From positions 18,089-82,088 of the forward strand of contig JBAZJW010000003.1 in the NCBI GenBank assembly GCA_041651055.1: a DNA stretch of 64,000 nucleotides, in the 5' to 3' direction. The notes beneath the pieces were generated by a model. The model saw only the letters and a program-made list of their open reading frames with translations, had not been told where the DNA came from and searched no databases. This document shows positions 16 to 61,758 of this stretch, in pieces (position 1 is the stretch's first letter; the number at the start of each line of letters is the position of its first letter). Origin of the DNA: Minisyncoccota bacterium. GTDB lineage: Bacteria > Patescibacteriota > Minisyncoccia > Phycocordibacterales > UBA5272. The position numbers and the translations under genes were made by a program.

Positions 16-3000
16 GTGGATACGACCTCACCTTCATTGAATTTCACATATCCGACGACGGATAATGGCTCGTTTATCAACGTGAATTACTCGCAGGTGA
101 ATATTTCGATTACTGAGCAGAACCTTGATTCGTTCAAGTTCAACTGGAACGGGACGAATTACTCTATATATGACGACTCTCTTGTTTTGGCGTTGAACTT
201 TAACAATAATTCGGCGATAGGGGAGAATTCAACAAGGTTTGTAGATATCTCTAAGTATGAAAATAATGGTACATGCTCAGGTTCTACATGTCCTACTTAT
301 ACAAGTACAGGAAAGTTCAATGGAGCATATCAGTTTGATGGAATAGAAGATTACATAGATCTTAATCAAACTGATTTGATATGGAATTATAGCACATCAA
401 ATAGTTTATATTTCTGGATTAAAGTAAACTCATTATTTCCTGAGTTTCCAGTAATAGCAAACTTTAAGACAAGTAATAACACTGGAATAGGAATCTTCTT
501 ATATGATGGAGTTGATATCTGTTCAAATGTTGATGATATTAGAATTAGAACTGATGGAGACATAAGTGGTTCATTTGTTGGAACATGGAAGAATGTAGTA
601 ATAACATATAATGGCGTTAATAAGTCAGATACTTCTAATTATAAGATATATGTTGATGGAGTTTCACAAGTTCTTGTGTATGGGATTCCTTGGAATGCAC
701 CTTATATAAATCTTATTGGAGTTAATGAAGTAGGGGCTTCTGATGATTACTTAACTGGTTCTCTTGATGAGATAAGATTATATAGGAGAGAACTAAGTCA
801 AGAAGAGATATTATTTATGTATGAGTCTGAATTAAGTAAATATAATTCTACTGAATACAGATTCTATTCTAACATTACAAATATTTCTGAAGGTTCTTAC
901 CAATACTATGGATGGGCTAATGATAGTGCTGGGAATAGCGGAGTTAGTGAAACAAGAAGTCTTACAGTTGATATGATCTATCCACTAGTGTCGATAATAT
1001 CAGGTCCATTGAATCATAGCAGACAGACAACCAATTATACCATTATTAATTCAAGCATTAGAGAAGACAAGTTAAATAGTTCAGGAATAATACTTGATGG
1101 AGTTGACTACCCAATCTATGATGACTCCCTAGTATTAGCGATGAATTTCAACAATAATTCAGCGATAGGGGAGAATGAGACAAGAGTTGTAGATATATCA
1201 AGATATAGTAATAATTTAACACTTGGAACTAATTCAACAAATATTCCAACATATGTGAATGGAAGATATAATTACGGAATACAATTTGATGGAAGTGATG
1301 ACATAGCACAAACAATAGAACAGATTCCAGATACAAACTCAATTACAATAGAAGGTTGGTTTTGGACTTCAAACCAAAGTTATGTGCTTGGAGCAACAAG
1401 AGCAATATATACTACCCCAAATTGCTATACTAATGATTGTGGTTTTGATTTTAAGATAGGCCCTACTGGTTTTGGATTTTTAGTAGAAACTGATAACCTG
1501 ACAGAAGGATATTGCTATGCTCCTGTCGCTAATGATTCATGGCATCACTTGGTTGCGACTTATAGTTCAGGAAATATAATTTTATATGTTGATGGAGTAC
1601 TAACAAACTCAACAATGCTAGTAGGAAGCACAGGAATTGATTTTGGAAACCGTAAGATATATTTTTCTAATTTAGGGAAATATAAAGGAAAAATTGATGA
1701 AGTACGTATCTGGAACAGAGTTCTTTCAGCAGCAGAAATTGCTTTACATTATCAATCCGAGTTTAAGAAATACAATTCAACAGAGTACAGACTATGGATA
1801 AATATAACAGAACAAAGCAAAGGAAAACACGACTACAGCATCTATGCAAGTGACGACTACCTATACAATGAGACTGAGACAAGGACATACACAATATCAA
1901 CTGCTCCAGTATTAGAGTTCGAATATCCAACAGAAGACAATAGATCAGTAATTGATAGGAATTATACTGAGATAAATATATCAATAAAAGAAGAGAACTT
2001 AGATGTATTGAATGTAAACTGGAATGGAATCCAATATAATGTAACTGAAGGATTACTATTGGGACTTGACTTTGATAACAATTCAAGAATAGGAGAGAAT
2101 GACTCAACATTCGTAGACATATCGCAGTATAACAATAATGGATCATGTTCTGGAACAAGTTGCCCTACTTTTAATGCAAGTGGAAGATTCAACGGAGCAT
2201 ACCAATTTGACGGAACAGATGATTACATAGAATTAGGAAATGATAATAGCTTAGATGTTACAAGTGAATTAACTGTTGAAGGATGGATCAAAGGGAACCC
2301 ACAAGAAGGAAAAGTAATAATAGCAAAATATGATTATGGTTTATCTAAGAGAACTTACTCATTAATGTCTGGAATAGTTTCACAAGATAAATTACTGATT
2401 GTTTTATCTGATGATGGTTCTAATATAGATAAATTGTATGAGAGTAGTATCACAACATTAGATAATACATGGAAGCATATAGCTTTAACATTTAATGGTA
2501 CTGATATATCTATTTATATTAATGGAGTACTTGACAATTCACCAACTAAAACAGTGGATGATCCGATAAATGGACTATATTCTTCAGATGCTAATACAAG
2601 CATCGGAGCATATGTGTTATCTTCCGGAGTTAAAGAAGCATTCTTCAATGGTTCAATAGATAAGCTGAGAGTATATAACAAAACACTAAGCCAAGAAGAT
2701 ATATTGTTTATCTATGACTCAGAATACAGCAAATATAATACAAGTGAATACAGGTTCTATAAGAATATAAGTGGTCTAAGTTATGGAGTGTATATGCATT
2801 CTGCATGGGCGAATGATACTGCTGGAAACTATAACTCAACAGGTACAAGGAAATTAACCTGTGATCTTGACGTTGAACTGATATTCAGTGAATGGTGTTA
2901 TCAGGAATCAGCTACAGTATTCAATCAAAGTGGAATGGATGGAAGTTGTGGTCTTAGATACAATGGATCATATTCTCTTCCAACACTGTATCACCCGATC

Positions 3001-5595
3001 AATATCGTAGATGGTAATGATTCGACAAGCGCTACTGGAAGCTATCTATATGTCAATTACACCAAACCAGATAATTCTGTTAATACAAGTTTATGGAGAG
3101 TTAAAGCAGTGTTTGAGGAATCAGCTGAGATAAGGAATCTATCAATACCTTATCCCTGTTGGAATTACTCTGAAGTTACATTAAATCTAAGAGCTTATGC
3201 GTGTGGATTCGATTGGTATTCATGTTCTTCAGAGGATGATGATTCAGTAGGGTTCTCCTGTTGGAATGGAAGCAGTTGGCAGAACATATACAATCATAGC
3301 AATGTTTCAGTCCAATATTCTATGTATGAGGAAGGGATGTGGTGGAATATAAGCGAGGAAAAGTATTCTTTTTACTCATGGAATGGAAACAAGTGGATAT
3401 ATGATATGGAACCTTTGATAAGGGTTAATTGGAGCTGTCCAAGAGGGAAGAACTACTGCACTCCAAGATATCAGAATAGCAGTCAGGGAGTTATGATGAT
3501 ATATAATAAGAGAAACATGAGTGGAGCATATATGAGACTCAATCAAACATCTGATTATATTACTGTATTCTGCGGAAACAACGCATCATATACTTCTGAT
3601 TATGTTAGAACCATTAATACTGATTGGAAGAAGGTATGCGATCTTGACATATATGAGAATTGTACCTTGTGGTGTTGGGTTAACAACTCACTTAACTCTT
3701 CTTTGTATGGTTATTCTTCTTTTTTGTTTGATATGAACTTCTCTAATTTCCCTACGATATACTTTGAAGAACCAACTGAAGACAATGGCACATATATCTC
3801 TGAGAACCATACCAAGATAGTGTTGTATTCTTCTTTTACTGATGAGGATGCTGCTTCTAATATTTCATTCAATTGGAATGATGAGATTAATATGAGTATA
3901 TTTGATGATTCTCTTGTTCTAAGTTTGAACTTCGACAATAACTCATATATCGGGGAGAATTCTATTACTGCTAAAGACACATCAAAATATAATGCAACAA
4001 TAACACATTCACTTCAATCTATAGAAGGTAAATTTGGAAAAGCATTAAACTATACTGGAAGTTCGGGTACTGGAATAGCTGGTTCTCCTTATGACATATA
4101 TGATACTCCACAATTCACTTTGGAAGCATGGATATACCAGTTAAACAGGACTGGAACAGTTGCAAATAAAGGGATTGTTGCAGGTAGAAGTTTTCGATGG
4201 CCATACTGTATGTATATATCAAATACAGGATATATTGTTAGTGGATTAACTTGGTCAGATGATAATACAGAGTATACTACAGTCAGCAATAATATAATTC
4301 CTCTCAATACATGGACACATGTTGCATTATCTTATAATGGTAGCCACGTAATTACCTGGATAAACGGAGTATTTGATAAATCTACTGCAAAAAACAAAGA
4401 CTTGAAACTTGGAACAAATAACAATTTCAAGATAGGTTATTTGGATACTACGAACTACTTTAACGGAACAATAGATGAAGTTAGATTATATAATAGAAGT
4501 CTTTCAAATGAAGAGATAAGATTACACTACTTAATTAACTTAAAGTATAAACTGCCAAATGAATATGAGATAACCATGAATATAACAAACCTAACAGATG
4601 GAGAATACCACTACCAAGGATGGTCCCAGAATAGCGAGGGACATGGGGCTGAAACAGAAAGAAGAACACTATATGTCAATAAAGAAGCTCCAGTGTTGAC
4701 CTTCCAAGACCCTACCCCCATAGATGAGGAATCTTTAACCAATAATTGGGTAGATATCAATGTAAGTATATCGGATGTTGCTAGGAATACTTTTGGAGTA
4801 ACATGGGGATCAACCAACTGCTCAATAGACGATACCTATCTTAAATTAGCTTTAAACTTCAACAATAACTCAGAGATAGGAGACAACTCAACATATTCAG
4901 TGGATATATCAAGATATGAGAACAATGGAGTAATATCTAATGGAAGCTATGTTGAAGGAAAGTTTGGACTTGGATTAAACTTCAATACTTCATCAAGAAT
5001 AACAATACAAGATATGAGTAACATATCCAAGAGCTATACAATAATGCATTGGCTTAAACCTAACCCAACATCATACAATTATCCTCCAATATTATACAAG
5101 AAATCAGGTAATAATGGATTCCTTGAATACTTTAGAAAGGCTACAAATGAGGTAAGACTAGTCATGTATAACTCATCTGGAACCAATTTTGAATGCCAAC
5201 AAACAAGCGACTACTGGATCAACACATGGAAACAAGTAGTGTGGACATATTCCAATTATAGCGGAGAGACAAAGTTATACCTTGACGGAACACTATCAAA
5301 GACATGCACAAACCAAAAAGACATAATAACGAACAGTGCGGACCTATTGATCGGATCAGATGGAACATACGGATACAATGGAACAATAGACGAGTTAAGG
5401 ATATATAGTAGAGTGTTGTCAGCAGAGGAAATAGCAATACAATATAAATCAGAATACACAAGATATAATGACAGTACTTATAGATTCATAACTAATATGA
5501 GCGCTGGAACAGGAACACAGAAGTTCTCAGCGTGGGCCAAAGACAACATGAACAACTATGGGACAACAGAGATTAGAACAGTATATATCAATTGA
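16..5595 (+). CDS. giant multi-LamG (concanavalin A-like jelly-roll) repeat surface/fibre adhesin; 5' end truncated by window edge
   Basis: 1859-codon ORF open to nt 1 (no upstream stop). Five ~200-aa units begin with DDSLVL.LNF.NNS.IGENST..VDIS.Y.NNG. Each ends in the LamG hallmark [IL]DE[VIL]R[ILV][YW][NR][RK].LS.EEI..[HMI]Y (LDEIRLYRRELSQEEI, IDEVRIWNRVLSAAEI, IDKLRVYNKTLSQEDI, IDEVRLYNRSLSNEEI, IDELRIYSRVLSAEEI). Very high density of N-x-S/T sequons. Cys/Trp-rich central insert (aa ~950-1240). Confidence 0.6.
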   Translation: MDTTSPSLNFTYPTTDNGSFINVNYSQVNISITEQNLDSFKFNWNGTNYSIYDDSLVLALNFNNNSAIGENSTRFVDISKYENNGTCSGSTCPTYTSTGKFNGAYQFDGIEDYIDLNQTDLIWNYSTSNSLYFWIKVNSLFPEFPVIANFKTSNNTGIGIFLYDGVDICSNVDDIRIRTDGDISGSFVGTWKNVVITYNGVNKSDTSNYKIYVDGVSQVLVYGIPWNAPYINLIGVNEVGASDDYLTGSLDEIRLYRRELSQEEILFMYESELSKYNSTEYRFYSNITNISEGSYQYYGWANDSAGNSGVSETRSLTVDMIYPLVSIISGPLNHSRQTTNYTIINSSIREDKLNSSGIILDGVDYPIYDDSLVLAMNFNNNSAIGENETRVVDISRYSNNLTLGTNSTNIPTYVNGRYNYGIQFDGSDDIAQTIEQIPDTNSITIEGWFWTSNQSYVLGATRAIYTTPNCYTNDCGFDFKIGPTGFGFLVETDNLTEGYCYAPVANDSWHHLVATYSSGNIILYVDGVLTNSTMLVGSTGIDFGNRKIYFSNLGKYKGKIDEVRIWNRVLSAAEIALHYQSEFKKYNSTEYRLWINITEQSKGKHDYSIYASDDYLYNETETRTYTISTAPVLEFEYPTEDNRSVIDRNYTEINISIKEENLDVLNVNWNGIQYNVTEGLLLGLDFDNNSRIGENDSTFVDISQYNNNGSCSGTSCPTFNASGRFNGAYQFDGTDDYIELGNDNSLDVTSELTVEGWIKGNPQEGKVIIAKYDYGLSKRTYSLMSGIVSQDKLLIVLSDDGSNIDKLYESSITTLDNTWKHIALTFNGTDISIYINGVLDNSPTKTVDDPINGLYSSDANTSIGAYVLSSGVKEAFFNGSIDKLRVYNKTLSQEDILFIYDSEYSKYNTSEYRFYKNISGLSYGVYMHSAWANDTAGNYNSTGTRKLTCDLDVELIFSEWCYQESATVFNQSGMDGSCGLRYNGSYSLPTLYHPINIVDGNDSTSATGSYLYVNYTKPDNSVNTSLWRVKAVFEESAEIRNLSIPYPCWNYSEVTLNLRAYACGFDWYSCSSEDDDSVGFSCWNGSSWQNIYNHSNVSVQYSMYEEGMWWNISEEKYSFYSWNGNKWIYDMEPLIRVNWSCPRGKNYCTPRYQNSSQGVMMIYNKRNMSGAYMRLNQTSDYITVFCGNNASYTSDYVRTINTDWKKVCDLDIYENCTLWCWVNNSLNSSLYGYSSFLFDMNFSNFPTIYFEEPTEDNGTYISENHTKIVLYSSFTDEDAASNISFNWNDEINMSIFDDSLVLSLNFDNNSYIGENSITAKDTSKYNATITHSLQSIEGKFGKALNYTGSSGTGIAGSPYDIYDTPQFTLEAWIYQLNRTGTVANKGIVAGRSFRWPYCMYISNTGYIVSGLTWSDDNTEYTTVSNNIIPLNTWTHVALSYNGSHVITWINGVFDKSTAKNKDLKLGTNNNFKIGYLDTTNYFNGTIDEVRLYNRSLSNEEIRLHYLINLKYKLPNEYEITMNITNLTDGEYHYQGWSQNSEGHGAETERRTLYVNKEAPVLTFQDPTPIDEESLTNNWVDINVSISDVARNTFGVTWGSTNCSIDDTYLKLALNFNNNSEIGDNSTYSVDISRYENNGVISNGSYVEGKFGLGLNFNTSSRITIQDMSNISKSYTIMHWLKPNPTSYNYPPILYKKSGNNGFLEYFRKATNEVRLVMYNSSGTNFECQQTSDYWINTWKQVVWTYSNYSGETKLYLDGTLSKTCTNQKDIITNSADLLIGSDGTYGYNGTIDELRIYSRVLSAEEIAIQYKSEYTRYNDSTYRFITNMSAGTGTQKFSAWAKDNMNNYGTTEIRTVYIN

Positions 5596-5614
5596 ATAAG
5601 AAGAGAGGAATAGA

Positions 5615-7327
5615 ATGGTAGATGTAAAAGAGATTGGAGGAAGCGTATGGACCTCTATGGGGATACCTGATGAATTCTCAGTATACATAAATAAGAAGGA
5701 TTATACTGCTCATACTGTGTCATGGAGTCTGACAAAGAAACTAAATGAGATAACAACATTTAAGGCATCACTGCTTGGAATAGATGATGATGAGAAACTG
5801 GATGTGGCTAAAGGAGAAGACATCAACATACTATTCGATGACGGAATAATAATGCAGGGATCAATAGAAAGAGTAACCTATACAACAGATTATAAGACAG
5901 AAGTAGAAGGATATGGGGATGAAGGGAAGATGCTTAAGAAGATAATCCCCGTATGCTGCGAACTATACACTGATTATAAGACTGCAATATATCATATATG
6001 TTCCGAGAATGGGGATGGGATTGAACCATTTTATCTTACCCCTGCACCAAACATAGAAGACCTTGGAATAGTCATAGCTACAATAAAGTATAAGAGCAAA
6101 CTTGAAGCAATATCCGACCTTTGCAAGGTAACGGGGAGAGAATGGTGGGTTGAGACCGATTATGACACATGGATCAGCTACTTATACATGGCATACTTCA
6201 AAGGAAGCGAAGACTCAGTTATAACATTCACCGCAGATGGAACCGCTCCAAACTGCACTGTAATAAGCTACAAACAAGATATTGAGAACTTATGTAACTC
6301 AGTCTATTATACTGGAACAATAAATTCAGTTGAGACCACTGCAAGAATAACTGACTCTTATAGGGTTACTGGTTTGAATTGGGGGGACAAATACACTGGT
6401 CTAACAGTTGACAGCAACTTATATGAGGCAATGGATGATTCACAGACTATTATGAAGTGCAAGAAGAGCGCTAGAACAGCCAATGCAAGGTTTGAAGGTA
6501 GGTATGTAAGCATTGGAAGCGATGAAGTAGCCCTGGTGTCAAGCTTCATAGACATGGGAGACTACTACCAATATGAGATTGTAAGGGATGTGTTACCTGG
6601 TTACCCGGCATCAACCCACCCCATAAGAACAGAGGTGTGTCTTGCTGCAGGAGGTCCAGGAGCGGATGCTTATGTCATTGTATCCGGGAGTGATGAGGAC
6701 TTGGCTGCTTTACCTGCTGTCGGAGTGTTAAAGATAGGATCACAGGATTATATCATATCATCAACCACCACAACTGAAGAGGATGAGGAAGGAAATATGG
6801 TTGGATTGATAAAGATGGAGTCCAGAGGATACCTCGATGAATCCCTGTATACTGAATTACCTTTCAGTCCTGAGATAACCGGTCTACCATACAAACACAG
6901 TGAAGGATCCCTCATATTCTATTGGTATGATATGGCGGTGGCGATATATAACCCAACCCATCCATACAGTGGATCATCTGTAGCCCTTGATGGATTATCA
7001 GAGAAATGGTACTCAGATACTTCAATAGATACATTGGACGGATTGGATCAAGCAGCATATAGTAAGCTGAACACTGAGACAATGAAGACAATAACAATAG
7101 AAGTATGCGACCCATATGAGATATTCCCATTGATAAGGATCGGAGATGTAGTATCATTCAACGATTCAGAGACTACTTTAACAGGAGACTACAGGGTGTT
7201 AGGATATACTCTTGGAATGGATCAAGGACAAATATCTCTTAAATACACAATTAGTCAAAACTATGTGACATGTATTGATGACCTTGCAAAGACAACAAAA
7301 GATGTCAAGAACCTAACACTACATTAA
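5615..7327 (+). CDS. hypothetical virion-associated protein (570 aa)
   Basis: long ORF 20 nt downstream of and co-oriented with the adhesin gene; no motif recognised. Confidence 0.45.
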   Translation: MVDVKEIGGSVWTSMGIPDEFSVYINKKDYTAHTVSWSLTKKLNEITTFKASLLGIDDDEKLDVAKGEDINILFDDGIIMQGSIERVTYTTDYKTEVEGYGDEGKMLKKIIPVCCELYTDYKTAIYHICSENGDGIEPFYLTPAPNIEDLGIVIATIKYKSKLEAISDLCKVTGREWWVETDYDTWISYLYMAYFKGSEDSVITFTADGTAPNCTVISYKQDIENLCNSVYYTGTINSVETTARITDSYRVTGLNWGDKYTGLTVDSNLYEAMDDSQTIMKCKKSARTANARFEGRYVSIGSDEVALVSSFIDMGDYYQYEIVRDVLPGYPASTHPIRTEVCLAAGGPGADAYVIVSGSDEDLAALPAVGVLKIGSQDYIISSTTTTEEDEEGNMVGLIKMESRGYLDESLYTELPFSPEITGLPYKHSEGSLIFYWYDMAVAIYNPTHPYSGSSVALDGLSEKWYSDTSIDTLDGLDQAAYSKLNTETMKTITIEVCDPYEIFPLIRIGDVVSFNDSETTLTGDYRVLGYTLGMDQGQISLKYTISQNYVTCIDDLAKTTKDVKNLTLH

Positions 7328-7329
7328 CT

Positions 7330-7425
7330 TATTGCAGTAATATACAATAATACTTCAATAATACTGCAGTAATATATAATAACACCGCAGTATTATTCAA
7401 TACTACTGCAGTATTATTCAATAAG
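7330..7425. repeat. four direct copies of ~16-nt motif GCAGTAWTATWYAATA in intergenic spacer
   Basis: ttgcagtaatatacaataa / ctgcagtaatatataataa / cgcagtattattcaata / ctgcagtattattcaata at 7332-7350, 7364-7382, 7387-7402, 7408-7423; AT-rich, between two + strand genes. Confidence 0.55.
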
Positions 7426-7497
7426 TATAGTAGTATATATAGATGTTTGACTATTAAATAATAAATAAAATAATCAAATAAGATCAACACAAACAAA

Positions 7498-8808
7498 ATG
7501 ACAATAATGAAGAATGGAACAATAGTAGAAGATAGAAAACTAACACAAAAAGAAAGATTCGACCTACAACTACTTGAAAGCATAAGATCAATAAGTCCAA
7601 ACTGCATAGGAATAGCCAAAGGAACAAAGATAACAGAAGGAAAAGACACTGGGATGCCAGCATACAAGCTATTCGTAAAGAAGAAACTACCAATAGAAAA
7701 GATACCAACAGGAGAAATGCTTCCAAAAGTGCTTGGAACACAAGATGAAAGACTACCAACAGACGTACAAGAACTAGGAGAGATCTATATAACATCAATG
7801 CTCAAAACCAAAAGAAGCAATAAACAGAAGATAAAGAACATAATACAAAGAATACAAGGAATAAGCAGGACAGACAAGGCAAGACCCTTCAAGATGGGAA
7901 CCAGCGGAGGATGCTGGGACACCACCGCGTTAACCAATGGGATGACCTTCAAACACATAGAATCAGGGAAGAAGGTCATATTCACCAACGGACACGGATC
8001 AGGATGCGACCTAAGAGACGAGATGCCCCTATCAACAGAGAAAAGATACCTACAACCAGGACCAGTAGACGGAGGACAACAAGAAGGAAACGTAGTAGGG
8101 GAGAGACTAAACCTGGTAAGATACAAGGACGGGAAAGGATGGAATGACGGGATGACGGTCATGGTATCCTCGGAAGACTACCTGGATGAGGAGTTGTATG
8201 AATTAGGCAGGGTAGTTGGAGTTGATACGCTGGTGGTCGGGGATAAGGTATTCAAGTCAGGTAGGACGACAGGAAAGACCGAAGGAAACTGCACATCTCT
8301 CAACGCAACAATATCAGTAAACTATGGAAACTACTCCATAACACACCTTGGATGCATACTATTCACAGGGATGAGCGCAGGAGGAGACAGCGGATCAGTG
8401 ATAGTAAAGATCAGGGAAGGTAAGATATATGTGGTAGCCTACCTATTCGCAGGGAATGAATCAGTGACAGTAGCCCATGAAATACAGAACATGATGAGCA
8501 TATTCGGATTAGCCCTAACACAGACAGAAGAACCAAACGATCCAATGGAGAATACTTACACAATGAATGTGGAAATGGAAAAAGAAACAAATGAGACACC
8601 ACAAACATGGACAGTAAAAGGAGTCATAACAGATAAGACAACAAAACAACCAATAAACGGTGTCAATGTAAAGATAGGAGAGATAAACTGCAACACAGGA
8701 TTGGATGGATCATATGCGGTTAAAGGACTCATAAAAGGGACATATAATACGCTGTTCTCAATGAGCGGATACAAGCAGATAAACGGATCAATAGTTCTTG
8801 GAGGATAA
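7498..8808 (+). CDS. trypsin-like serine protease domain protein with C-terminal CarboxypepD_reg-like beta-sandwich
   Basis: MSAGGDSGSVIV resembles the chymotrypsin-family GDSGGP catalytic-serine motif; C-terminal TWTVKGVITDKTTKQPINGVNVKIGE...DGSYAV is a carboxypeptidase-regulatory-like fold signature. Confidence 0.45.
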   Translation: MTIMKNGTIVEDRKLTQKERFDLQLLESIRSISPNCIGIAKGTKITEGKDTGMPAYKLFVKKKLPIEKIPTGEMLPKVLGTQDERLPTDVQELGEIYITSMLKTKRSNKQKIKNIIQRIQGISRTDKARPFKMGTSGGCWDTTALTNGMTFKHIESGKKVIFTNGHGSGCDLRDEMPLSTEKRYLQPGPVDGGQQEGNVVGERLNLVRYKDGKGWNDGMTVMVSSEDYLDEELYELGRVVGVDTLVVGDKVFKSGRTTGKTEGNCTSLNATISVNYGNYSITHLGCILFTGMSAGGDSGSVIVKIREGKIYVVAYLFAGNESVTVAHEIQNMMSIFGLALTQTEEPNDPMENTYTMNVEMEKETNETPQTWTVKGVITDKTTKQPINGVNVKIGEINCNTGLDGSYAVKGLIKGTYNTLFSMSGYKQINGSIVLGG

Positions 8809-8819
8809 ATACAGAGTAA

Positions 8820-9434
8820 ATGGACAAAGAAGACATAGGAGAAGAACCGGAAGAGCAAGCACCAGAGATCCAACAAGAAGAATATAATGTGAGGAAACCA
8901 GGGAGAAAGAAAGGATCAACCAATAAAGGAGTAAGGAAAGTATTATGGGACAATCTTCCAATGAATATACAACTGGAGATATGGAAGATGAAAACAGACG
9001 GGGCAAGCATAGCAAAGATCTGTAAATACGTCCACGACCAATACCCAAAGTATACTGCAAGCGAGAAATCAGCAACTAAATTCTTCAACTACCGGAAAGA
9101 GATACTATCAACAGAAGTAGTAAACTCCAAGACCTACCAAGACTCAATAGTTGAAACCTTCTCAGAGATGTGCAAAGACATGAACGTAGTGAGTAAACTG
9201 CTCGTGGAAAGAGCGAAAGAAGAAGCGATAGGGGGTAAAACAGAGGATCTAACTGATGCTGCAGGAGAATTTCTGAACTTCTTCAAAGCACACGGAGACC
9301 TCTTAGAGAAGACTGGAAGACCAGATAGCAATCTGAAACCAGTGAATACAGTACAAGAATTGAAGGACACAGTGAGTGGAATAAAGATAAAGAAGATAAA
9401 CCAGGAAGTAAAAGAAGAAGAGCCGAGCATTTGA
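8820..9434 (+). CDS. hypothetical K/E-rich protein (204 aa), last gene of + strand block
   Basis: ORF starting 12 nt after protease stop; charged, no motif. Confidence 0.4.
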   Translation: MDKEDIGEEPEEQAPEIQQEEYNVRKPGRKKGSTNKGVRKVLWDNLPMNIQLEIWKMKTDGASIAKICKYVHDQYPKYTASEKSATKFFNYRKEILSTEVVNSKTYQDSIVETFSEMCKDMNVVSKLLVERAKEEAIGGKTEDLTDAAGEFLNFFKAHGDLLEKTGRPDSNLKPVNTVQELKDTVSGIKIKKINQEVKEEEPSI

Positions 9435-15069: not shown

Positions 15070-16236
15070 TTAAAAGGTGTATTTAGCTGATTGTACTCTT
15101 GGTTTTGCCACCACAACTCCATTAATATCCATGAGTAATTGTTCCTTGACTGCTAACTTGATCCAGAGTGAGTTGATTCGTGGTTTACTCATCTGATAGT
15201 ATTTCTCAAAGAAGAAAAATAAATCCTCTTTGGTCATGGGGTTGGGCTCATTCAATACTACTTGATACATGGCTTCCTTCTCAGGATCATCCCGCAGTAT
15301 CATCCTATTCTTGCATTCATCTCTCAATAGGGCTTTGAGTGTGTCGTCTACTATGATGTCAGGGAAAGTGCCATTGGCTGCAGCATAACCTACTGCGATC
15401 CTCTTATACAATGATTCTTCAAAGTGTGGGACTGCCATTGTTGTGTCTATGAGCTTCTCTACCTCTGAGACATCTATCTTATCAATCAATTTAGCCAGTT
15501 CATATAACTCAGCCACTTCAGCAGCCACTTCGTTCTTAACGCATTCAGAGATGGGGCGTTTCATCCTTGGGTCTCTGCCAGCTTTCTTCAATTGGATTGC
15601 TATTGTTGGAGTAGGGAATATGATTTGAATGACAAAACGCCTCAATAAACCTGATGCAGTGTCCATATTGGTTAAGCGTAGACCAGGCCATATAGTAGTT
15701 CCTATCATGGTCTCTGTGATTTCTCCAGAGCATAGATCTTTGGTTGCGGTGTCTCCGTCCAATGCTGATAGGAGATACACTTCTTCATTTGTTGAGATAG
15801 CGTTCTCGGCAAGGAGTTTGAGACGCATAAACTCGTCTGCTCCAACCATCCCTCTCTTGAATCTGCTGAAGACTCCCTTGGTTGTGATGAGTTCTCCGTC
15901 CTTGCCTGTCTTCTTGTTTGAGATGGTGCCAAGCCAGCATTCAGCTGAGAATGTGGAGCGGACTGAGACAGGGAATGTAGTGTTAGAGGAGAGGATTCCA
16001 TTGGGGCCAAGGTAGAAATTAATAGTTTGAGACTTGGTGAATCCAGAAGGAGCCATAATGCCTTCGTGTAATCGGTAATTCTCCCTGCGACCAGCGTGAT
16101 AATGGCGGTCAGTATCCAAGTTGGCAAGGTTGATAACATGGGATGCTATGGATGCACAGGCTCGCTCAGTAAGGAAGGGGAATTGGATCAAGCCCATGTT
16201 CTCGTTCTCCTGCTTAACGATTGATAATAAAGACAT
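15070..16236 (-). CDS. hypothetical protein (388 aa), possibly replication-associated
   Basis: large ORF in replication/recombination neighbourhood; no clear motif. Confidence 0.4.
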   Translation of the reverse strand: MSLLSIVKQENENMGLIQFPFLTERACASIASHVINLANLDTDRHYHAGRRENYRLHEGIMAPSGFTKSQTINFYLGPNGILSSNTTFPVSVRSTFSAECWLGTISNKKTGKDGELITTKGVFSRFKRGMVGADEFMRLKLLAENAISTNEEVYLLSALDGDTATKDLCSGEITETMIGTTIWPGLRLTNMDTASGLLRRFVIQIIFPTPTIAIQLKKAGRDPRMKRPISECVKNEVAAEVAELYELAKLIDKIDVSEVEKLIDTTMAVPHFEESLYKRIAVGYAAANGTFPDIIVDDTLKALLRDECKNRMILRDDPEKEAMYQVVLNEPNPMTKEDLFFFFEKYYQMSKPRINSLWIKLAVKEQLLMDINGVVVAKPRVQSAKYTF

Positions 16237-18235: not shown

Positions 18236-18997
18236 TTAGATAACTGCTCGCGCATTTATCTGAGTTTTTCCGCCCTTGTCCTGGTTCACATATCCGAAGA
18301 CAGTGATCTTCTTTCCTTTTGCCGTCTTGTCTGTCTCAGGTCCGTTCACATATACTGTGACTGGGATCCCTTTTATGGAGACAAGTTCAAGTCCGTGTCC
18401 GCCATCATACTTGAAGACCCTTCCAACTATGCCAGTGAAGAACTCGCTCTTCTTCATGTAGTTGTCGGCTTCAGATATGTTGTGGACTCCTATCTTCTGG
18501 ACCAGCTGCTCGGTTGTCGGGAACGTGGCGGTGGACGCTTTGATTATGTCCTTGCCTTCTCCCAGCACTCGCAGCTTGGGCAGTTGATCACCGTTGCCTG
18601 CTACCAGCTTGGCTTTGCAGTCATACAGTTCTCCTTCAGATACTCCGTCCAATAGGGCTATGCGGTCATTGTAGAAGGATGCATCGTATAATACATCCTT
18701 TTCCAGTTTGCCGTCCACTCCTACAAAGGCATATACGCGGGCCACTGTGTAGGGCTCTTTGCCTTCTTTGGTTGGCTTCACAACTTGGGGGTCGCTTATT
18801 GATAGGACCCTCATTGTGATCTCTGCCACTCGTCCTCCGAATAGGTTTGCATTCTCTGACTTCCATAGACAGAATGCAGTCTCTTCGTCATATCCCTTTG
18901 TTACCATTTCAGCTATTGCTTTTTCAATATCAGCCAATGGTACCCCAGTTGTTGTTGAGGCTATTATTGCCTCCTTCTCTATGTTTTTGTCTTGCAT
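18236..18997 (-). CDS. putative OB-fold ssDNA-binding protein
   Basis: beta-rich segments (RVLSISDPQVV...YTVARVYAFVGVDG; KITVFGYVNQDKGGKTQINARAV) compatible with RPA/SSB OB folds; position in replication module. Confidence 0.3.
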   Translation of the reverse strand: MQDKNIEKEAIIASTTTGVPLADIEKAIAEMVTKGYDEETAFCLWKSENANLFGGRVAEITMRVLSISDPQVVKPTKEGKEPYTVARVYAFVGVDGKLEKDVLYDASFYNDRIALLDGVSEGELYDCKAKLVAGNGDQLPKLRVLGEGKDIIKASTATFPTTEQLVQKIGVHNISEADNYMKKSEFFTGIVGRVFKYDGGHGLELVSIKGIPVTVYVNGPETDKTAKGKKITVFGYVNQDKGGKTQINARAVI

Positions 18998-20058: not shown

Positions 20059-21819
20059 TTACTCTTTAATTAGATTGAAGAAGGTTTGGGGGAGTAGGGA
20101 TAAGTGGGATATTATCTTGAAGTTCCTGCGTTGAGGACCGAGGATGTCGTTGTAGTCCTTGATAACTCTCTCTCTCATTGAAGCGTCTGATTGAATGTAA
20201 GCAATTCCATAGATTGAGATGCCTGAGCGGTGAGCTATCTTGGATTGCTCAATGGCTTCCTGCTTGTCTGATGCTATGCCGTCAGAAATGAAGAGGATGC
20301 GTTTTATGTTATTGGCTTTGCATCTTGTAATGGCAGTCCCAAGGGCTCGTCCAAGAGGGGTGAGTTTGTCAGCGTCAAAGCCTCCAAGCAAGGCACGGGT
20401 TTGGTCTGTGAATCGTTCTGTTCGTTCCTTTACCATGCGGATCTGATCCTTGTGTCCAAAGTATAGCATCTCGTATTTAATCTTGGTTGTGGTGAGGGCT
20501 TCACATATTATTGCTAGTGACATTATGTATTGGTTCTCGTATTGGGAGACGCTTCCTGAGTTGTCCACTAATATGTATAAGTCGGTTTTGTTTGAGATGC
20601 GTTCTTCATTGTTGAAGTATTTGTCGGAGCAGGAGATGTAGGCTTCAGGGTCGAAGTCTTCTCCTTCAGTGTCTAAGTGCTCATCCCAGCCAATGGTCCA
20701 CTTCTTGAGACGCTGCTTCATGTCAAGGGTTTCGCGTTGGACTGCTCCCTTCAATGTGTTGTATCTGCCGATGTCTGAGGAATTGGAGCGGATTATTGGT
20801 GTCTTGGCTATCTTCATCTGTTGTGTGTATTGGTCGCATAGTGATTTGAATTCTACCTTGAGTTCTTCTGTTGGGGAGGTTTCATCGGAGTCTATTTGTT
20901 GCAGGATCTTTTCGACTGCTTCAAGGCTTCCTCTTATTGATGCTTCGGATGTTTGTATCTTTTGTCCAGGAGTTGTGTTAGTATCAAGTTCTCCAGGTGC
21001 TTGGATATAGACCATGTTCAAGCCTTGGGAGTTTGGGTCGAGTTCTTGAGAGGTTGATCCATTCTCTTTCCTTTCATTGTATTGGTCTCTGAAATCGGGT
21101 TCATCTGGGAATAGTTTGGAGAACTTGAATGTGGACTCTATTGCTTGGTCTGTGGTCTCGATGTCTTGGAATTCAGGTATCAATGCTTTTAGTTGTGTTA
21201 GGAGTTCAGGTGAGAGTTTTTCATACATTGGGTTGGTGTCTCTTTCAGTGTCTTTGGATATGGAGCGGAGAGAGTCGAGGATGTAGAGTCCTGCGATTCT
21301 AACAGTTGAGAGAGAGTGCTTTAATCTTGTGTATTCCTTTGCGTTCTTCTTCAAGTAGTATTGGTCTCTGAAGCGTTGTTCTCTGTAGTAGCCTGTGTAA
21401 GTGCGAAGACTGATTTTTTCTATGCGGTAATCTTCTAAGGCATTGAATAATTGGAAGATGAATTTGTCTTTGGCGTGTTCTTTTGGCAGTATGTCAGGGT
21501 TTATGTGGGGTGTGTGCCAGATGTGGAGTGATTCATGGAAAGTCTCAAAGCGGAAGAGTCTCCATATATTGAAGTCTTGGGTTAGATCGCCTGAAAACAT
21601 TGGGAGTTGAGGAATGAGAATTGTGCCTCTGCTGTCTTTAGTAATTAGTGTGGAGAATCCTTTGTTTGTGAGTGAGGTGATTATATGAGTATTCTTGCAT
21701 TTGGACCATACACGAGCCAAATGATTCAAGTGATCTACTCTTACATCATTGGTATAAGTGGTTTGAATAGATTGCTGTTGAGACATATTATCAATGTCGT
21801 CTGGAGTTGGTTGTTTCAT
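20059..21819 (-). CDS. von Willebrand factor A (vWA) domain protein, CoxE/NorD-like
   Basis: C-terminal MIDAS: LYILVDNSGSV (DxSxS)...TPLGRAL...ILFISDG; long N-terminal extension. Confidence 0.6.
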   Translation of the reverse strand: MKQPTPDDIDNMSQQQSIQTTYTNDVRVDHLNHLARVWSKCKNTHIITSLTNKGFSTLITKDSRGTILIPQLPMFSGDLTQDFNIWRLFRFETFHESLHIWHTPHINPDILPKEHAKDKFIFQLFNALEDYRIEKISLRTYTGYYREQRFRDQYYLKKNAKEYTRLKHSLSTVRIAGLYILDSLRSISKDTERDTNPMYEKLSPELLTQLKALIPEFQDIETTDQAIESTFKFSKLFPDEPDFRDQYNERKENGSTSQELDPNSQGLNMVYIQAPGELDTNTTPGQKIQTSEASIRGSLEAVEKILQQIDSDETSPTEELKVEFKSLCDQYTQQMKIAKTPIIRSNSSDIGRYNTLKGAVQRETLDMKQRLKKWTIGWDEHLDTEGEDFDPEAYISCSDKYFNNEERISNKTDLYILVDNSGSVSQYENQYIMSLAIICEALTTTKIKYEMLYFGHKDQIRMVKERTERFTDQTRALLGGFDADKLTPLGRALGTAITRCKANNIKRILFISDGIASDKQEAIEQSKIAHRSGISIYGIAYIQSDASMRERVIKDYNDILGPQRRNFKIISHLSLLPQTFFNLIKE

Positions 21820-21961
21820 AGTCTCACTCTTATTCTTTGTTTAACTGGTTTGCATTTATGCTCTTTCATCTCTCTTGGAGTTGGATTTAATAGTAATAAC
21901 CCACATGACTTACATTTCCAGTTTACTCCAATTGTTAGTTGTTTCATCTTGCTCCTAAGTG

Positions 21962-22216
21962 TTATAACTCTAAAAGTAACTTTGCATCATTATTCCATGT
22001 TCCATCTTTGTTCTCACGCCATGACATGTCTATAAACAAATTCTTCAAGTCCAGAATGTAAGCAGATTTGTAGTGATGATTTGAGAGTTCTATGGCGATG
22101 GCTTCTGCTATTCCAGCAGTTTCAGGTTGTCCTCTTCTTTGATATATGTCTCTTTTATCTTCCATTGATTTGATATAATATATCTGGGCTTCTTTGTATT
22201 CATCCATTGTAATCAC
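21962..22216 (-). CDS. hypothetical protein
   Basis: between AAA+ and vWA genes. Confidence 0.3.
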   Translation of the reverse strand: MITMDEYKEAQIYYIKSMEDKRDIYQRRGQPETAGIAEAIAIELSNHHYKSAYILDLKNLFIDMSWRENKDGTWNNDAKLLLEL

Positions 22217-22437
22217 TCCAATTTGATCTTACCTTGTTTGTATTGATGATATAATCTGACAACCAATCCTTTGTCTCTTATAGCGATTACTTGATTGTAG
22301 GAGCGATCTATGAATTTGGAGATTAATTCTAAGACAGTGAACCATGTGAGCATTATTCCAAGTAGGGATATACAGAGACAATCCAGGAAACCAAGGATTA
22401 TCAGTGTATAGTAAATTGATTCGAGTATTGGGATCAT
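22213..22437 (-). CDS. small membrane protein
   Basis: two TM helices. Confidence 0.3.
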   Translation of the reverse strand: MIPILESIYYTLIILGFLDCLCISLLGIMLTWFTVLELISKFIDRSYNQVIAIRDKGLVVRLYHQYKQGKIKLE

Positions 22438-22679
22438 TCTAATTTCCTCTTTACATATTCAGCTCTTGCTCTTTGTTCCAGTTCTTCTGCTTTGGAGAGA
22501 TCGAAGTTGAAGTATTCGAAGGCGGCTAGTATTTGAACTAGGGATTGAACTACTGCTTCTTCCACTTCTTTTTGTGTTGTCAGTTCATGTGAGCAGCATC
22601 CGCAGCCAGTTGATCTGGCACTGAATCCTTCTTCATCTATTTTGTTATCTTTATTAGACCAGAAACTCATTAGTCCCAT
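22434..22679 (-). CDS. hypothetical protein
   Basis: CGCCSHE. Confidence 0.3.
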   Translation of the reverse strand: MGLMSFWSNKDNKIDEEGFSARSTGCGCCSHELTTQKEVEEAVVQSLVQILAAFEYFNFDLSKAEELEQRARAEYVKRKLE

Positions 22680-22866
22680 TTTAGTTTTTATTTTTTATTC
22701 TCTTTGGACAATGATCTATATCGCAGAGACATAATACACCTGGGCCTTCATGTCTTGCATAGCATATTGCAGCTTCCATTGTCTCATTTTTGTTGTGTAT
22801 GATTTCTCTTGAAAGACAATCCTCATTTGAGGTGCTTATTATCCAAGTTAGTCCCATTTTGCTTGT

Positions 22867-23886
22867 TTAGATTGTAATGTCGTCCGCTTTAACTTTTTGC
22901 TCTTCATAGCAGCCAAGGGAATGTGCAAGCGTTTTAAGGTTATCCATGTGGAAGGTTCCCCATTGTCTCATAGCATTAATCAATGTAAGATCAATGGTTT
23001 CGGTCAATGAGTAGCCGCTGTTTAGTAGGTGGGCTGCTGTGATTGATTCTCTTGTGGTGGGGCGGTATGGGTATTCGTCTGTGCTTCTAATGTTCTCGAA
23101 TAGCTTCAATACCTTAAGCAAGTCATCGCGGTGTTGTGATTCTAGTGTCAGCTTTCTTTCGACTATTTTGAGTTCGGTGAAGGCTGGGGGATAGTTGTAG
23201 ACTAGGCGTGCTGAGAATCGTGAGAGTATTTGTTGGGGTAGTTCCTTTGCTCCAGGGCAGTCAAGGGGATTGATTGAGGCGGTGAAAAACCAGGAGGGTT
23301 TAGCGTGTATTGTTAGTCCTTCATAGTTGAGTTCTCGTCTGTCGTCTAGGCATTCATTTAAGCGGATTAGGACATCTGGCTCGGATTGATTGATTTCATC
23401 TAGCATTAAGATTGAGCCTTCTTCCATTGAGAGGGGGAGTGGTCCTTTTTTCCAGTTGATGTTTCCGTCCTGTAAATCCAAGCGTCCAAGTAAATGCTGT
23501 TCTCTGCAGCGTAGTGAGAGGTTTAGTGAGTGTATGTTTTGGTTGTATTTTTCTGCCATTAGTAGAATAGAGATCGTCTTGCCACAACCAGGGGGGCCAA
23601 TGAGTAGGGGGTTGATTCCTTTTTCATACAAGTGGCATAGTTTTCTGAAATTGCCTTCCCAGTCGTAGAATTTGCCTCCGCTTAGGTCTTTGAGTATCCA
23701 GATTGCTCCAGAACGTATTATGATATCCTTCTGTTTTAGTGAGTCTAGTGCAGGGTAGATGTTTTGTATGGTGAGCGGTTCTGGGAGATTTAGGGGTTTG
23801 CTCCATTCTATGAGTTCTGTGGGTGAGCCTTTCTTGTGTTGGTCCAGTATTGATACCAGTATTCCTTCTATTTGTGCTTTATCCAT
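22867..23886 (-). CDS. MoxR-like (AAA_5) AAA+ ATPase
   Basis: Walker A LLIGPPGCGKT, Walker B ILMLDEINQ, sensor ..FFTASINP; partner of the downstream vWA protein. Confidence 0.6.
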   Translation of the reverse strand: MDKAQIEGILVSILDQHKKGSPTELIEWSKPLNLPEPLTIQNIYPALDSLKQKDIIIRSGAIWILKDLSGGKFYDWEGNFRKLCHLYEKGINPLLIGPPGCGKTISILLMAEKYNQNIHSLNLSLRCREQHLLGRLDLQDGNINWKKGPLPLSMEEGSILMLDEINQSEPDVLIRLNECLDDRRELNYEGLTIHAKPSWFFTASINPLDCPGAKELPQQILSRFSARLVYNYPPAFTELKIVERKLTLESQHRDDLLKVLKLFENIRSTDEYPYRPTTRESITAAHLLNSGYSLTETIDLTLINAMRQWGTFHMDNLKTLAHSLGCYEEQKVKADDITI

Positions 23887-38684: not shown

Positions 38685-40061
38685 TCATTCCTTCTTCTTT
38701 GTTTCGTGCTTTATCTCGTGCCTGCGCGTTATGGGCTCTACTCCGACAGCTTCGAATATCTTCGGCAGAGCCGCTGTTCCCTGCATCACGGTATTCAGGA
38801 TGGATCCGCCAAGTCCCATGTCTGACGTATCCCCTGTCTGGACTATCGTTATCTTGTCTCCGATGTTCTTCAGGGGCTCTGCTATTCTCTCGGCTATCAA
38901 AGGAAGCGTCTCTATCTTCATTATCTCAAGGCCGCTCTGGTTCAATTCCTTGTATGCTTCCGCCTTCTTCTGGACTCCTTCCGCTTCGGCTAGAAGCTTT
39001 TGTTTCTGTCCCTCCGCTTCGGCCAGTAATTTTGCCTTTATTGCTTCCGCTTCCCCGATCCCTTCCAGCTTCTTCTTCTCGGACTCTCCCGCCGCAATAG
39101 CGATCGTCTTGACTTTCTCGGCCTCTCCTTCAAGCTGCTGTATTTCCTTGTTTCGTTCGGATATCTCTACTTGTTTCTGCTTCTGTATTAGTTCGATCTT
39201 CATCTGCTCTTCTTTCAGTTTCTGTGTTTGTATGGCAGTCTCTATATCCTTTGCCTTGTCGGCCATGGCCTGCTGCGTGAATGTCTCCTGGTTGTATAGC
39301 GCCATCTTTATCTGTTTTTCTTTTTCGTATTCTGCTATCTTTGTCTGCGCTATGTTCTCCTGCTCGCTTGCTTCCTGGTTCGCCTTGGCGGTCGCCTTCC
39401 GGGACTCGCTCTTCGCGTTGGCTTCGGCTATCTCCGCTGCTTTTATCTTTTCGGCAAGCTCCTTTGCGTAGAGGGACTCTATGTACCCTCTGCCGGTCTC
39501 TTTCTTTGTTGACGATGAATCGCTGATGTCCTTTATCGTGAAGGATACTATCGAGAGGCCCATCTTCTCCAGGTCGTCTTTTGCGTTCTCAAGGACCCTT
39601 TTGTTGAAGCTTTCCCGGTCCTGTATCAATTCCTCGACTGTCATGTTGGCGCATATCGCCCTTATGTGGCCCTCCATTGTCTCTTCTATCTTCTGCATTA
39701 TCCTTTCGGTCTCAAAGCCCAGGAATGATTTTGATACGTTGGCGTATCCTTCTTCGGTGTCCTGCAACTGTAATTGTGCGACTGCTTCCACGTCGACGGG
39801 AACGATAAGCTGAGTCTGCACGTTTTCCTTTACTATTGTGACGGTCATAAGCTGTTTTGTTATGGACCACGCTTCTTCCAGGACAGGGAATATGAGCGTT
39901 GCTCCTCCCGACACGAATCTTGTTCCTTTCCTTCCGGAGATCACCATAAGCTTTGACGGGGGTACTTTGATATAGTTCCTGCTCATAACATACGCTCCCC
40001 CCATGACCGCTATTGCTCCCCCGCCGACTATTATCGGCAGCACGAATCCGTCGATGTTCAT
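38685..40061 (-). CDS. flotillin / SPFH (band 7) domain protein
   Basis: N-terminal TM segment, SPFH core (VISGRKGTRFVSGGATLIFPVLE...TVEELIQDRESFNKRV...GLSIVSFTIKDISD) and long Ala/Glu-rich coiled coil (AEAEGQKQKLLAEAEG). Confidence 0.7.
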   Translation of the reverse strand: MNIDGFVLPIIVGGGAIAVMGGAYVMSRNYIKVPPSKLMVISGRKGTRFVSGGATLIFPVLEEAWSITKQLMTVTIVKENVQTQLIVPVDVEAVAQLQLQDTEEGYANVSKSFLGFETERIMQKIEETMEGHIRAICANMTVEELIQDRESFNKRVLENAKDDLEKMGLSIVSFTIKDISDSSSTKKETGRGYIESLYAKELAEKIKAAEIAEANAKSESRKATAKANQEASEQENIAQTKIAEYEKEKQIKMALYNQETFTQQAMADKAKDIETAIQTQKLKEEQMKIELIQKQKQVEISERNKEIQQLEGEAEKVKTIAIAAGESEKKKLEGIGEAEAIKAKLLAEAEGQKQKLLAEAEGVQKKAEAYKELNQSGLEIMKIETLPLIAERIAEPLKNIGDKITIVQTGDTSDMGLGGSILNTVMQGTAALPKIFEAVGVEPITRRHEIKHETKKKE

Positions 40062-40639
40062 TTTTCAGCCTCTCTTGATGCTTTTTTTACTTTCAACATG
40101 TCGCCGCATAGTCCGGCGACTATTACATTCGTTCCCTTGGGCAGGCTTTCGTCCGAGACCGCCAGTAAAGACTTATGGCTCCCGTCTACGAAAAGAACTT
40201 CCCCCTTGTCGCCCGCGCCCTTTATCTCCACTGTCACTACGCCCTCTTTTCCTATGAAATCCCTCAGCTTGCGTATAGAGCTTGGCGAATTGGAGAACAC
40301 CTTGGACATTAGATACGTTGATGAGACGGTTATCGCTAAAGAGATAAAAAGCGACGCAGGAACCAGGACAAAAGGACTCATTTCAGGATACGCGAGCAGG
40401 AGATATACCCCGGCCCCTCCGAAAGTCGTGCAGAACGCGCCCATCGCGAATGTGCCAAAGCCGTGGAAAGACACTCCGTCGAATGCATCCCCCAGGAGGG
40501 ATATGCCATCCAACGCGTTGCCCACGCCTTCCAATACCCCTTCCAGGGCGTCGCCTAATATGTCGGCAAAGAAGCTGACAACTGTGATCAATAGCCCCAT
40601 CAAGAATATTATTCCGAAAACTAGTAGAATATCTATCAT
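40058..40639 (-). CDS. NfeD-like membrane protein (YuaF/YqiJ type), operon partner of flotillin
   Basis: multi-TM N-terminus plus C-terminal OB-like beta domain GKEGVVTVEIKGAGDKGEVLFVDGSHKSLLAVSDESLPKGTNVIVAGL; 4-nt overlap with flotillin gene. Confidence 0.6.
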   Translation of the reverse strand: MIDILLVFGIIFLMGLLITVVSFFADILGDALEGVLEGVGNALDGISLLGDAFDGVSFHGFGTFAMGAFCTTFGGAGVYLLLAYPEMSPFVLVPASLFISLAITVSSTYLMSKVFSNSPSSIRKLRDFIGKEGVVTVEIKGAGDKGEVLFVDGSHKSLLAVSDESLPKGTNVIVAGLCGDMLKVKKASREAEK

Positions 40640-61744: not shown

Positions 61745-61758
61745 ACCACATAAAAAAG

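Follow-up and report, generated by a model that had tools for sequence, protein, structure and literature searches.

The 64,000-nucleotide stretch analysed here, referred to as the window (positions 18,089 to 82,088 of contig JBAZJW010000003.1, assembly GCA_041651055.1), carries on its minus strand a gene for a 339-amino-acid (aa) AAA+ ATPase of the CobS-like/MoxR class (22867..23886), followed by a gene for a 586-aa protein that ends in a von Willebrand factor A (vWA) domain (20059..21819). Between the two genes lie 1,047 nt with five small open reading frames (ORFs). An earlier note made from the letters of this DNA postulated that a virus-borne pair of an AAA_5/MoxR ATPase and a vWA protein with a MIDAS, an adhesion site which depends on a metal ion, is encoded here, and this has been borne out. 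The two proteins are very probably a remote member of the viral CobS/CobT-like MoxR-vWA class ('cobST'), and the locus is a new, very divergent branch of this known viral pair which is met in metagenomes only.

The ATPase and the adaptor protein

The ATPase was identified by Pfam, PHROG, a sequence search of the PDB and hhalign. The Pfam family AAA_5 is matched with 80.1 bits (cut-off 22, E 2e-22), and phrog_249, which carries the label 'porphyrin biosynthesis' and equals CobS, is matched at 3e-26. The sequence search of the PDB returned the AAA modules of midasin (3.5e-46, summed over repeats), NorQ (3e-19) and CbbQ (1e-17), and the hhalign comparison with Sinorhizobium meliloti CobS gave a probability of 97.7 and E 1.5e-12; CbbQ_C stayed at 12.9 bits, under its cut-off of 20.6. 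The Walker A motif GPPGCGKT (23575..23598, minus strand) and the Walker B motif MLDEIN (23389..23406, minus strand) are both in place. In the ATPase alignment with six homologues (alignment A3) G97, G100, G102 and K103 of the former and D163 and E164 of the latter are invariant, and so are N206, R223 and R267. By their position these last three residues would be sensor 1, the arginine finger and sensor 2, because their spacing resembles that of N186, R210 and R271 in CobS. Homology to NorQ, CbbQ, CobS and midasin suggests that the ATPase forms a hexameric ring.

The N-terminal part of the ATPase, about 70 residues (23677..23886, minus strand), is probably a winged helix-turn-helix. This assignment comes from an alignment with the N-terminus of the homologue P0005, which matches HTH_IclR at 3e-7, HTH_5 at 6.5e-6 and HTH_24 at 5e-5; the Pfam search of the window ATPase gave no direct match over the same residues.

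The partner protein was harder to place. The Pfam family VWA is matched with 24.9 bits, barely above the cut-off of 23.8, and a word-based homologue search with the protein returned itself only. The vWA family used in the following therefore comes from phmmer, run exhaustively over 1.84 billion representatives; it consists of 111 cluster representatives, 51 of them at E ≤ 1e-10 and all of them metagenomic. Conservation figures for this family are taken from an alignment of 56 sequences. The MIDAS motif DxSxS is present as DNSGS (20551..20565, minus strand; D419, S421, S423) and is completed by T487 and D513, and all five residues are invariant in the 56 sequences. The AlphaFold2 (AF2) model of the protein has a predicted local distance difference test (pLDDT) value of 82. 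When searched with Foldseek it finds the NorD vWA domain of the NorQD complexes (E 4e-10), then the MIDAS domain of MDN1 and many integrin I-domains. The family profile matches NorD at 1e-18 and CobT (9uka_G) at 1.6e-10, and the latter match is collinear across both domains, from the glutamate helix through the vWA domain, with 'AVEQARVEAIG' of CobT aligned on 'NIlEDyRIEklG' of the family. In spite of the marginal Pfam score the vWA domain with a complete MIDAS site is therefore secure, since the invariant residues, the model, the Foldseek match to NorD and the family profile all point to it.

The AF2 model, the family profile and a comparison with viral protein models in BFVD divide the protein into an N-domain that is zincin-like, a linker that is disordered, the shaft and the vWA domain, i.e., the architecture of a CobT-like adaptor. 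The N-domain (residues 24-240; 21100..21750, minus strand; pLDDT 85 in the domain model) is modelled as a helix, a three-stranded sheet and a helical bundle. The sequence HESLH, an HExxH motif (21523..21537, minus strand), lies on the long helix after the sheet, and EDYRIE (E129-E134) follows about 30 residues later on the next helix. The residues E96, H99, E129, D130 and R132 are conserved in at least 90% of the 56 sequences, and HExxH as a whole is kept in 47 of them. An hhalign comparison of the N-domain with the 'peptidase' of cyanophage ACG-2014b gave a probability of 97.9 and E 5e-13 over a region which spans both HExxH and EDxRIE; weak, sub-significant matches were to selecase/MJ1213, BlaR1 and M1 peptidases, and the best match of the N-domain profile was MJ1213/selecase at E 0.58. 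The N-domain is a candidate for a zincin-like fold of the gluzincin type, because of its motifs, its predicted topology and its relationship to CobT and the phage 'peptidase', and the HExxH site may be catalytically competent.

The linker (residues 242-290; 20950..21096, minus strand) has pLDDT below 50. It is followed in the model by two helices and then by a conserved segment just before beta-1 of the vWA domain, GWxE..G.D.D..Y (20584..20691, minus strand), in which G377, W378, E380, G386, D390 and E405 are invariant in alignment A1 and which aligns with the 'GDDLD' stretch of NorD. This segment is a candidate for the shaft or finger that would enter the pore of the ATPase, because its position matches that of the CobT shaft (Q373-R413) ahead of the MIDAS residue D422. 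A further conserved motif, LPxxFFxL, is found at the C-terminus, where the vWA domain closes the protein at residue 586 and no effector domains follow. The idea that the vWA protein is CoxE-like could not be kept: VWA_CoxE scores 20.5 bits, under its cut-off of 26.4, and the protein does not have the four-helix N-domain of CoxE; it has instead the CobT architecture with HExxH.

Pairing, inserted reading frames and viral context

The check on co-occurrence in related viruses which the earlier note had asked for gave a positive answer. Eight further metagenomic virus lineages were found (L001/2, L003-5, L006/7, L008, L036, L037/38, L039 and the short L035), with ATPase homologues which are 41-52% identical. 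In every case in which the two genes can be seen, that of the ATPase lies upstream of the vWA gene and shares its strand. The partners overlap or are a few nt apart in L001/2, L003-5, L006/7, L008 and L039; L036, where the contig ends inside the AAA gene and a gap of 148 nt precedes the vWA gene, is consistent with pairing. L037/38 is the exception, as one 85-aa ORF separates the partners there. Because the partners are adjacent or one ORF apart in the relatives, adjacency is ancestral, and the window shows insertion in an extreme form.

Outside these lineages the sequence is very remote from what is known. A search of the locus against phages at the DNA level gave no match, and neither did tblastn with the vWA protein against 50,697 phage records. 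With the ATPase as query the identity to phage records is 22-25% among the 25 matches listed, and all 476 matches are below 60%. The IMG/VR database was scanned with alignments, one of which (A2) was too diverse to use; the scan with A1 found no confirmed relative, and the scan with A3 found 22 loci, among which L008 alone is close.

The five ORFs between the partners code for 58, 81, 74, 84 and 43 aa. Two 4-nt overlaps are found among them and a third at the start of the vWA gene, the other junctions being short spacers. Calls by Prodigal-type programs (JGI/Logan/ENA) and by the NCBI pipeline PGAP were compared: the former call four of the five ORFs, PGAP calls two, and the 43-aa ORF is called by none. 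A frame test based on codon usage, for which the long genes of the window served as training set, is positive for the four larger ORFs, each in its own frame as the best of six. The earlier count of three tiny intervening genes thus has to be revised to five ORFs, four of them supported by the codon test and the 43-aa one equivocal.

The 58-aa ORF (22681..22857, minus strand) has five Cys and three His residues and a positive codon score, and is called by the Prodigal-type programs and not by PGAP. The 81-aa ORF (22434..22679, minus strand; 78 aa in PGAP) scores +16.7. Both of these begin with AAAATGGGACTAA (Met-Gly-Leu), and the common start may be a small duplication or a common context for translation initiation. 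The 74-aa ORF (22213..22437, minus strand; Prodigal-type calls, codon score +10.3) overlaps its neighbours by 4 nt on each side. It encodes a predicted membrane mini-protein, with a Kyte-Doolittle maximum over 19 residues of 2.59 at residues 12-30, and so the membrane mini-protein that had been suspected here is retained. The 84-aa ORF (21962..22216, minus strand; 81 aa from ATG) is called by PGAP as well as by the other programs and scores +14.1; a near-identical copy is present on a second contig of 511 bp. The doubtful 43-aa ORF (21816..21947, minus strand) contains CxxC...HxC and has AGGAG 5 nt upstream, and its codon score is -3.2.

All five small ORFs are without a Pfam, PHROG, NCBIfam or PADLOC match above threshold, without paralogues in the window and without homologues in the 39 loci compared. 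Weak matches to DUF7128 (0.019), MamI (0.0033) and phrog_13529 (0.0047) were not credited. Their base composition sets them apart from the pair. The coding strands of the ATPase and vWA genes are C-rich (C 0.27, G 0.16-0.17, GC at third codon positions 0.46-0.48), with GC skews of -0.23 and -0.25. In the small ORFs the GC content is 0.33-0.40 and the skew is opposite in four of the five, the 74-aa ORF being mildly negative, so that they resemble the other mini-ORFs of the array. The C-rich strand is also absent from the conserved replication genes next door. Since it is seen neither in the intervening ORFs nor in these neighbours, it suggests joint acquisition of the ATPase and vWA genes or a constraint common to both. 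The four or five small ORFs, orphans with a base composition unlike that of both partners, look like later, lineage-specific accessory insertions and not like parts of the machine.

The whole contig of 84.9 kb is viral from end to end, with a tail/virion protein, a terminase, a Mu-like portal and further structural genes. NCBI bins it as part of a Candidatus Paceibacterota metagenome-assembled genome. A prophage in a Paceibacterota genome was considered and rejected, because the entire contig is viral. All genes in the region of the pair are on the minus strand, and the structural genes are on the opposite strand (tail/virion 16-9434, terminase and portal 58056-61744). Within the structural module a protease-like gene (phrog_20754) is found at 7498-8808.

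Downstream of the pair and on the same strand follow genes for an RPA-like single-stranded DNA-binding protein (SSB), for proteins of 326 and 388 aa, for a PD-(D/E)XK nuclease and for RecU; the pair heads this replication/recombination block. The RPA-like protein (253 aa; 18236..18997, minus strand), recognized by its family profile and by the neighbourhoods of the homologues, has an oligonucleotide/oligosaccharide-binding (OB) fold. Its profile matches archaeal Replication factor A (8aa9, E 8e-4), the N-terminus being of the archaeal RPA-like kind, and three of six homologues match the OB-fold family tRNA_anti-codon. It is the most constant follower of the vWA gene, being found behind it in L001, L006, L036, L037 and L039. 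The 388-aa protein (15070..16236, minus strand) is conserved in L001 and L006 (47-52% identity) and in L037 (31%), where the PD-(D/E)XK nuclease recurs too. It has no Pfam, PHROG or PDB match; a Walker-A-like 'APSGFTKSQ' and a 'GADEF' motif were seen by eye, and the replication module may have in it a divergent NTPase of the P-loop kind; an MCM-like identity, suggested by the motifs seen by eye, is not claimed. For the 326-aa protein no PDB or Pfam match was found, nor any detectable similarity to the AAA_24 protein of L037. PCNA, PriL, PolB and TGT are carried by relatives at a greater distance. It should be noted that in the virus and its relatives the RPA-like protein, PCNA, PriL and PolB look archaeal/eukaryal in type and RecU is bacterial in type. 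In a cyanophage and in a Rhizobium phage, too, the cobS/cobT-like genes have genes for a clamp, a clamp loader or Pol III as neighbours.

A scan for promoters and terminators found no minus-strand terminator-like site within the unit and was otherwise uninformative, the counts being those of shuffled controls; a scan for tRNA genes found none. Some other genes of the window may be mentioned. At 38685-40639 (minus strand), in an island with GC 0.46-0.49 compared to about 0.38 elsewhere, a gene of the SPFH/flotillin type (458 aa) forms a membrane-scaffold pair with an NfeD-like one (193 aa). At 50259-51386 (minus strand) a 375-aa protein has a PTP-like phosphatase domain of dual specificity, of the 'Swiss Army Knife' type of polymorphic toxins (PTP-SAK, 2e-9). 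Directly after the portal gene, which is an unusual position, 61348-63945 (plus strand) codes for an ATP-dependent DNA ligase domain with a C-terminal HTH (865 aa according to the ORF finder, 728 aa as called).

Comparison with known MoxR-vWA pairs

The cobST cluster is widespread in tailed viruses of bacteria and archaea, and the cobT of cyanophages is usually annotated as a peptidase (Liu et al., PMC8651126). A MoxR-vWA pair with an N-terminal metallopeptidase has been described in T4-like jumbo phages (Iyer et al. 2021, PMC7824862), so virus-borne pairs, including the version with the metallopeptidase, are already known (PMC7824862, PMC8651126, PMC7911831). The pair in the window shares with them an AAA_5 ATPase and a partner of about 550-850 aa with N-terminal HExxH and ExxR(I/V)E, a linker and a C-terminal MIDAS vWA domain. 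It is likewise placed among replication genes, and in cyanophage ACG-2014b two small genes lie between the 'peptidase' and cobS. The gene order differs, being ATPase then adaptor here and adaptor then ATPase in the two phages examined; other differences are the very remote sequence, the probable N-terminal winged helix-turn-helix on the ATPase and the four or five inserted ORFs. In the Foldseek search against BFVD, viral VWFA/CobT proteins were matched over the full length; their sources are podo- and siphoviruses that are uncultured, HCTV-2, HVTV-1, Brevibacterium phage Cantare, Gordonia phages and Thermus P74-26.

The cellular counterpart is CobT of the cobaltochelatase (EC 6.6.1.2; structures 9UKA-9UKL). 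It consists of an M48C-like N-domain, a disordered linker of about 90 residues, beta0-alpha0'-alpha0, the shaft Q373-R413 and the vWA domain; the shaft enters the CobS ring and the MIDAS is at D422 (10.64898/2026.07.21.739949). The order of elements is the same in the window protein, where the MIDAS is at 419 compared to 422 and the motif on the glutamate helix is EDYRIE compared to EQARVE. The gene order, ATPase then adaptor, is that of cellular cobS-cobT as well. With hhalign the vWA domain aligns with the CobT of a Rhizobium phage (E 2e-12) and with that of S. meliloti (E 5e-10). For the motifs, S. meliloti cobT (L040:2228-4123) was compared with two phage genes for CobT-like proteins (L031:1051-3162 and L030:940-3483). 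In S. meliloti CobT, the sole cellular CobT examined, EQARVE is kept but HExxH is missing, GDSMALR being found instead, whereas both phage proteins keep HExxH as HEVGH, like the family of the window.

Among solved structures the best matches for both proteins are NorQ/NorD (9QH4-9QHG) and CbbQ/CbbO. A finger of NorD reaches into the pore of NorQ, and the C-terminus of NorD is a second contact (PMC13036017). NorD has a 'GDxLD' segment ahead of its vWA domain, as has the window protein, but only the vWA part aligns, the N-domain of NorD being not detectably related to that of the window. Nor is there any nitric oxide reductase or Rubisco context at the locus. The eukaryotic midasin (Rea1/MDN1) is close in its parts, since in the sequence search the ATPase matches its AAA modules best and its MIDAS domain comes second among the structural matches of the vWA domain; it differs in being a single giant polypeptide with six fused AAA modules which acts in ribosome biogenesis. 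Finally, the pair p618 (MoxR) and p892 (vWA) of Acidianus two-tailed virus (ATV) is likewise encoded by a virus, and the passages on it in two articles describe an experimentally supported chaperone role (PMC7824862, PMC7911831). By the description in Iyer et al. (PMC7824862), and the comparison goes as far as that description does, the ATV pair is without a peptidase domain and acts in tail development.

The proposed machine and its possible client

We propose that the pair is an ATP-driven machine of the CobS/CobT type whose preferred client is a protein of DNA replication or host take-over, and we assign this statement as a whole a probability of about 0.55. The ATPase would build a hexameric ring, and the segment just before the vWA domain of the adaptor would plug its pore as a shaft or finger, while the conserved LPxxFFxL at the C-terminus of the adaptor may provide a second contact with the ring. 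The MIDAS face and the zincin-like N-domain would face away from the ring and hold the client protein. Hydrolysis of ATP would then twist or pull the adaptor, and the client would be remodelled, loaded with metal, or cut at the HExxH site. The client is more likely to be a protein, of the virus or of the host, that has to do with DNA replication or host take-over than a virion protein or the CobN of the host, because the pair lies in a replication block, the ATPase has the probable winged helix-turn-helix, and HExxH is retained. The clients are thus ranked in the order replication or take-over, cobaltochelatase, virion assembly and conflict system.

Several observations are at variance with this proposal. 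The winged helix-turn-helix is seen through a single homologue, P0005. HExxH is absent from nine of the 56 family members, and catalysis may thus not be essential. Foldseek with the N-domain against the PDB gave no significant match, the best being selecase (E 0.6, probability 0.6). The synteny with replication genes may merely reflect a common timing of expression. Moreover, the published default reading of the viral cobST cluster (PMC8651126) is a different one, according to which such genes are auxiliary metabolic genes for true cobaltochelatase subunits. The viral CobS and CobT would join the CobN of the host, hydrogenobyrinic acid a,c-diamide would receive its cobalt from the three, and this would raise the supply of cobalamin, e.g., for B12-dependent nucleotide reduction.

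The match of the ATPase to phrog_249 and to S. meliloti CobS, the collinear alignment of the vWA family with CobT and the gene order shared with cellular cobS-cobT are all in favour of a cobaltochelatase, as is the fact that three to four of the 56 family members touch Pfam CobT or CobT_C (best E 3e-4). However, the family profile is stronger on NorD than on CobT, and an NCBIfam scan of both proteins at E 0.01 returned no family named for CobS or CobT; its matches to the pair were GvpN, BchD and RFC, all far under their cut-offs. The family also retains the HExxH which is lost in S. meliloti CobT and is presumably not needed by a chelatase. In the window no cobN or other cob gene was found, the 1859-aa virion protein being the one ORF of the size of CobN, and a B12-dependent ribonucleotide reductase was not seen among the ORFs scanned. 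In the CobSTN complex the N-domain and the MIDAS face contact CobN (10.64898/2026.07.21.739949), and conservation of these contacts is not readable at 15-20% identity. On balance we consider it unlikely that the pair serves as a cobaltochelatase.

A role in assembly, which the earlier note had suggested as one possibility, would make the pair a chaperone with a processing protease that folds, assembles or trims structural proteins. Iyer et al. (2021, PMC7824862) have proposed such a role for the same architecture of MoxR and metallopeptidase-vWA, the accounts of ATV p618/p892 in that article and in PMC7911831 supply an experimental precedent, and the conserved HExxH would suit a protease. The position of the genes does not favour it: they are on the opposite strand from the tail/virion, terminase and portal genes and at the head of the replication/recombination block, in several lineages the pair is embedded in such a block, and the structural module has a protease-like gene of its own. 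A virion-assembly function is thus less probable again than a chelatase.

That the pair is a counter-defence or conflict module akin to the cellular vWA-MoxR ternary systems, as had also been suggested, is the least probable of these alternatives: MoxR-vWA pairs are the cores of such systems (PMC7159879), bpMoxR is weakly touched by all six ATPase homologues (best E 1e-5) and the array around the genes has small members that look accessory, but the third component that defines the ternary systems, i.e., VMAP, iSTAND, an FtsH-type ATPase or a vWA-fused beta-propeller (Kaur et al. 2020, PMC7159879), is found in none of the seven ORFs of the unit and the conserved third gene is RPA-like, no variable effectors are present C-terminal to the vWA domain, the architecture is constant over 56 homologues where conflict systems typically vary, bpMoxR scores 17 bits on the window ATPase against a cut-off of 27, PADLOC-DB 2.0 at E 0.01 gave no match for any of the seven proteins, and no positive evidence for an anti-defence role was found.

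The proposal of a machine acting on replication or take-over proteins can be carried further, into a version that is clearly more speculative and to which we attach little probability. The viral CobT-like proteins would have the ancestral, catalytically active CobT fold, and the pair would be a replication-linked protease or remodeller, possibly tethered to DNA by the winged helix-turn-helix and working with the RPA-like SSB. If this were true, a three-gene cassette would process or load proteins of the replisome or of the host, and the label 'cobalt chelatase' on hundreds of phage genes would be wrong.

The finding is real and the kind of system has been described before; the locus reveals no new kind of system. 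What is particular to the branch is the four or five inserted mini-genes, the probable winged helix-turn-helix of the ATPase and the conserved RPA-like neighbour, and the locus points to concrete residues, namely E96 and D419/S421 of the adaptor and E164 of the ATPase. Of the gene pairs in tailed viruses that await an explanation, the cobS/cobT-like pair is one of the more widespread, and it is routinely annotated as an auxiliary metabolic gene for vitamin B12. Here a divergent branch keeps the pairing of the genes, the MIDAS site and HExxH and adjoins replication/recombination genes, a pattern which agrees better with a general machine for remodelling or proteolysis than with a chelatase.

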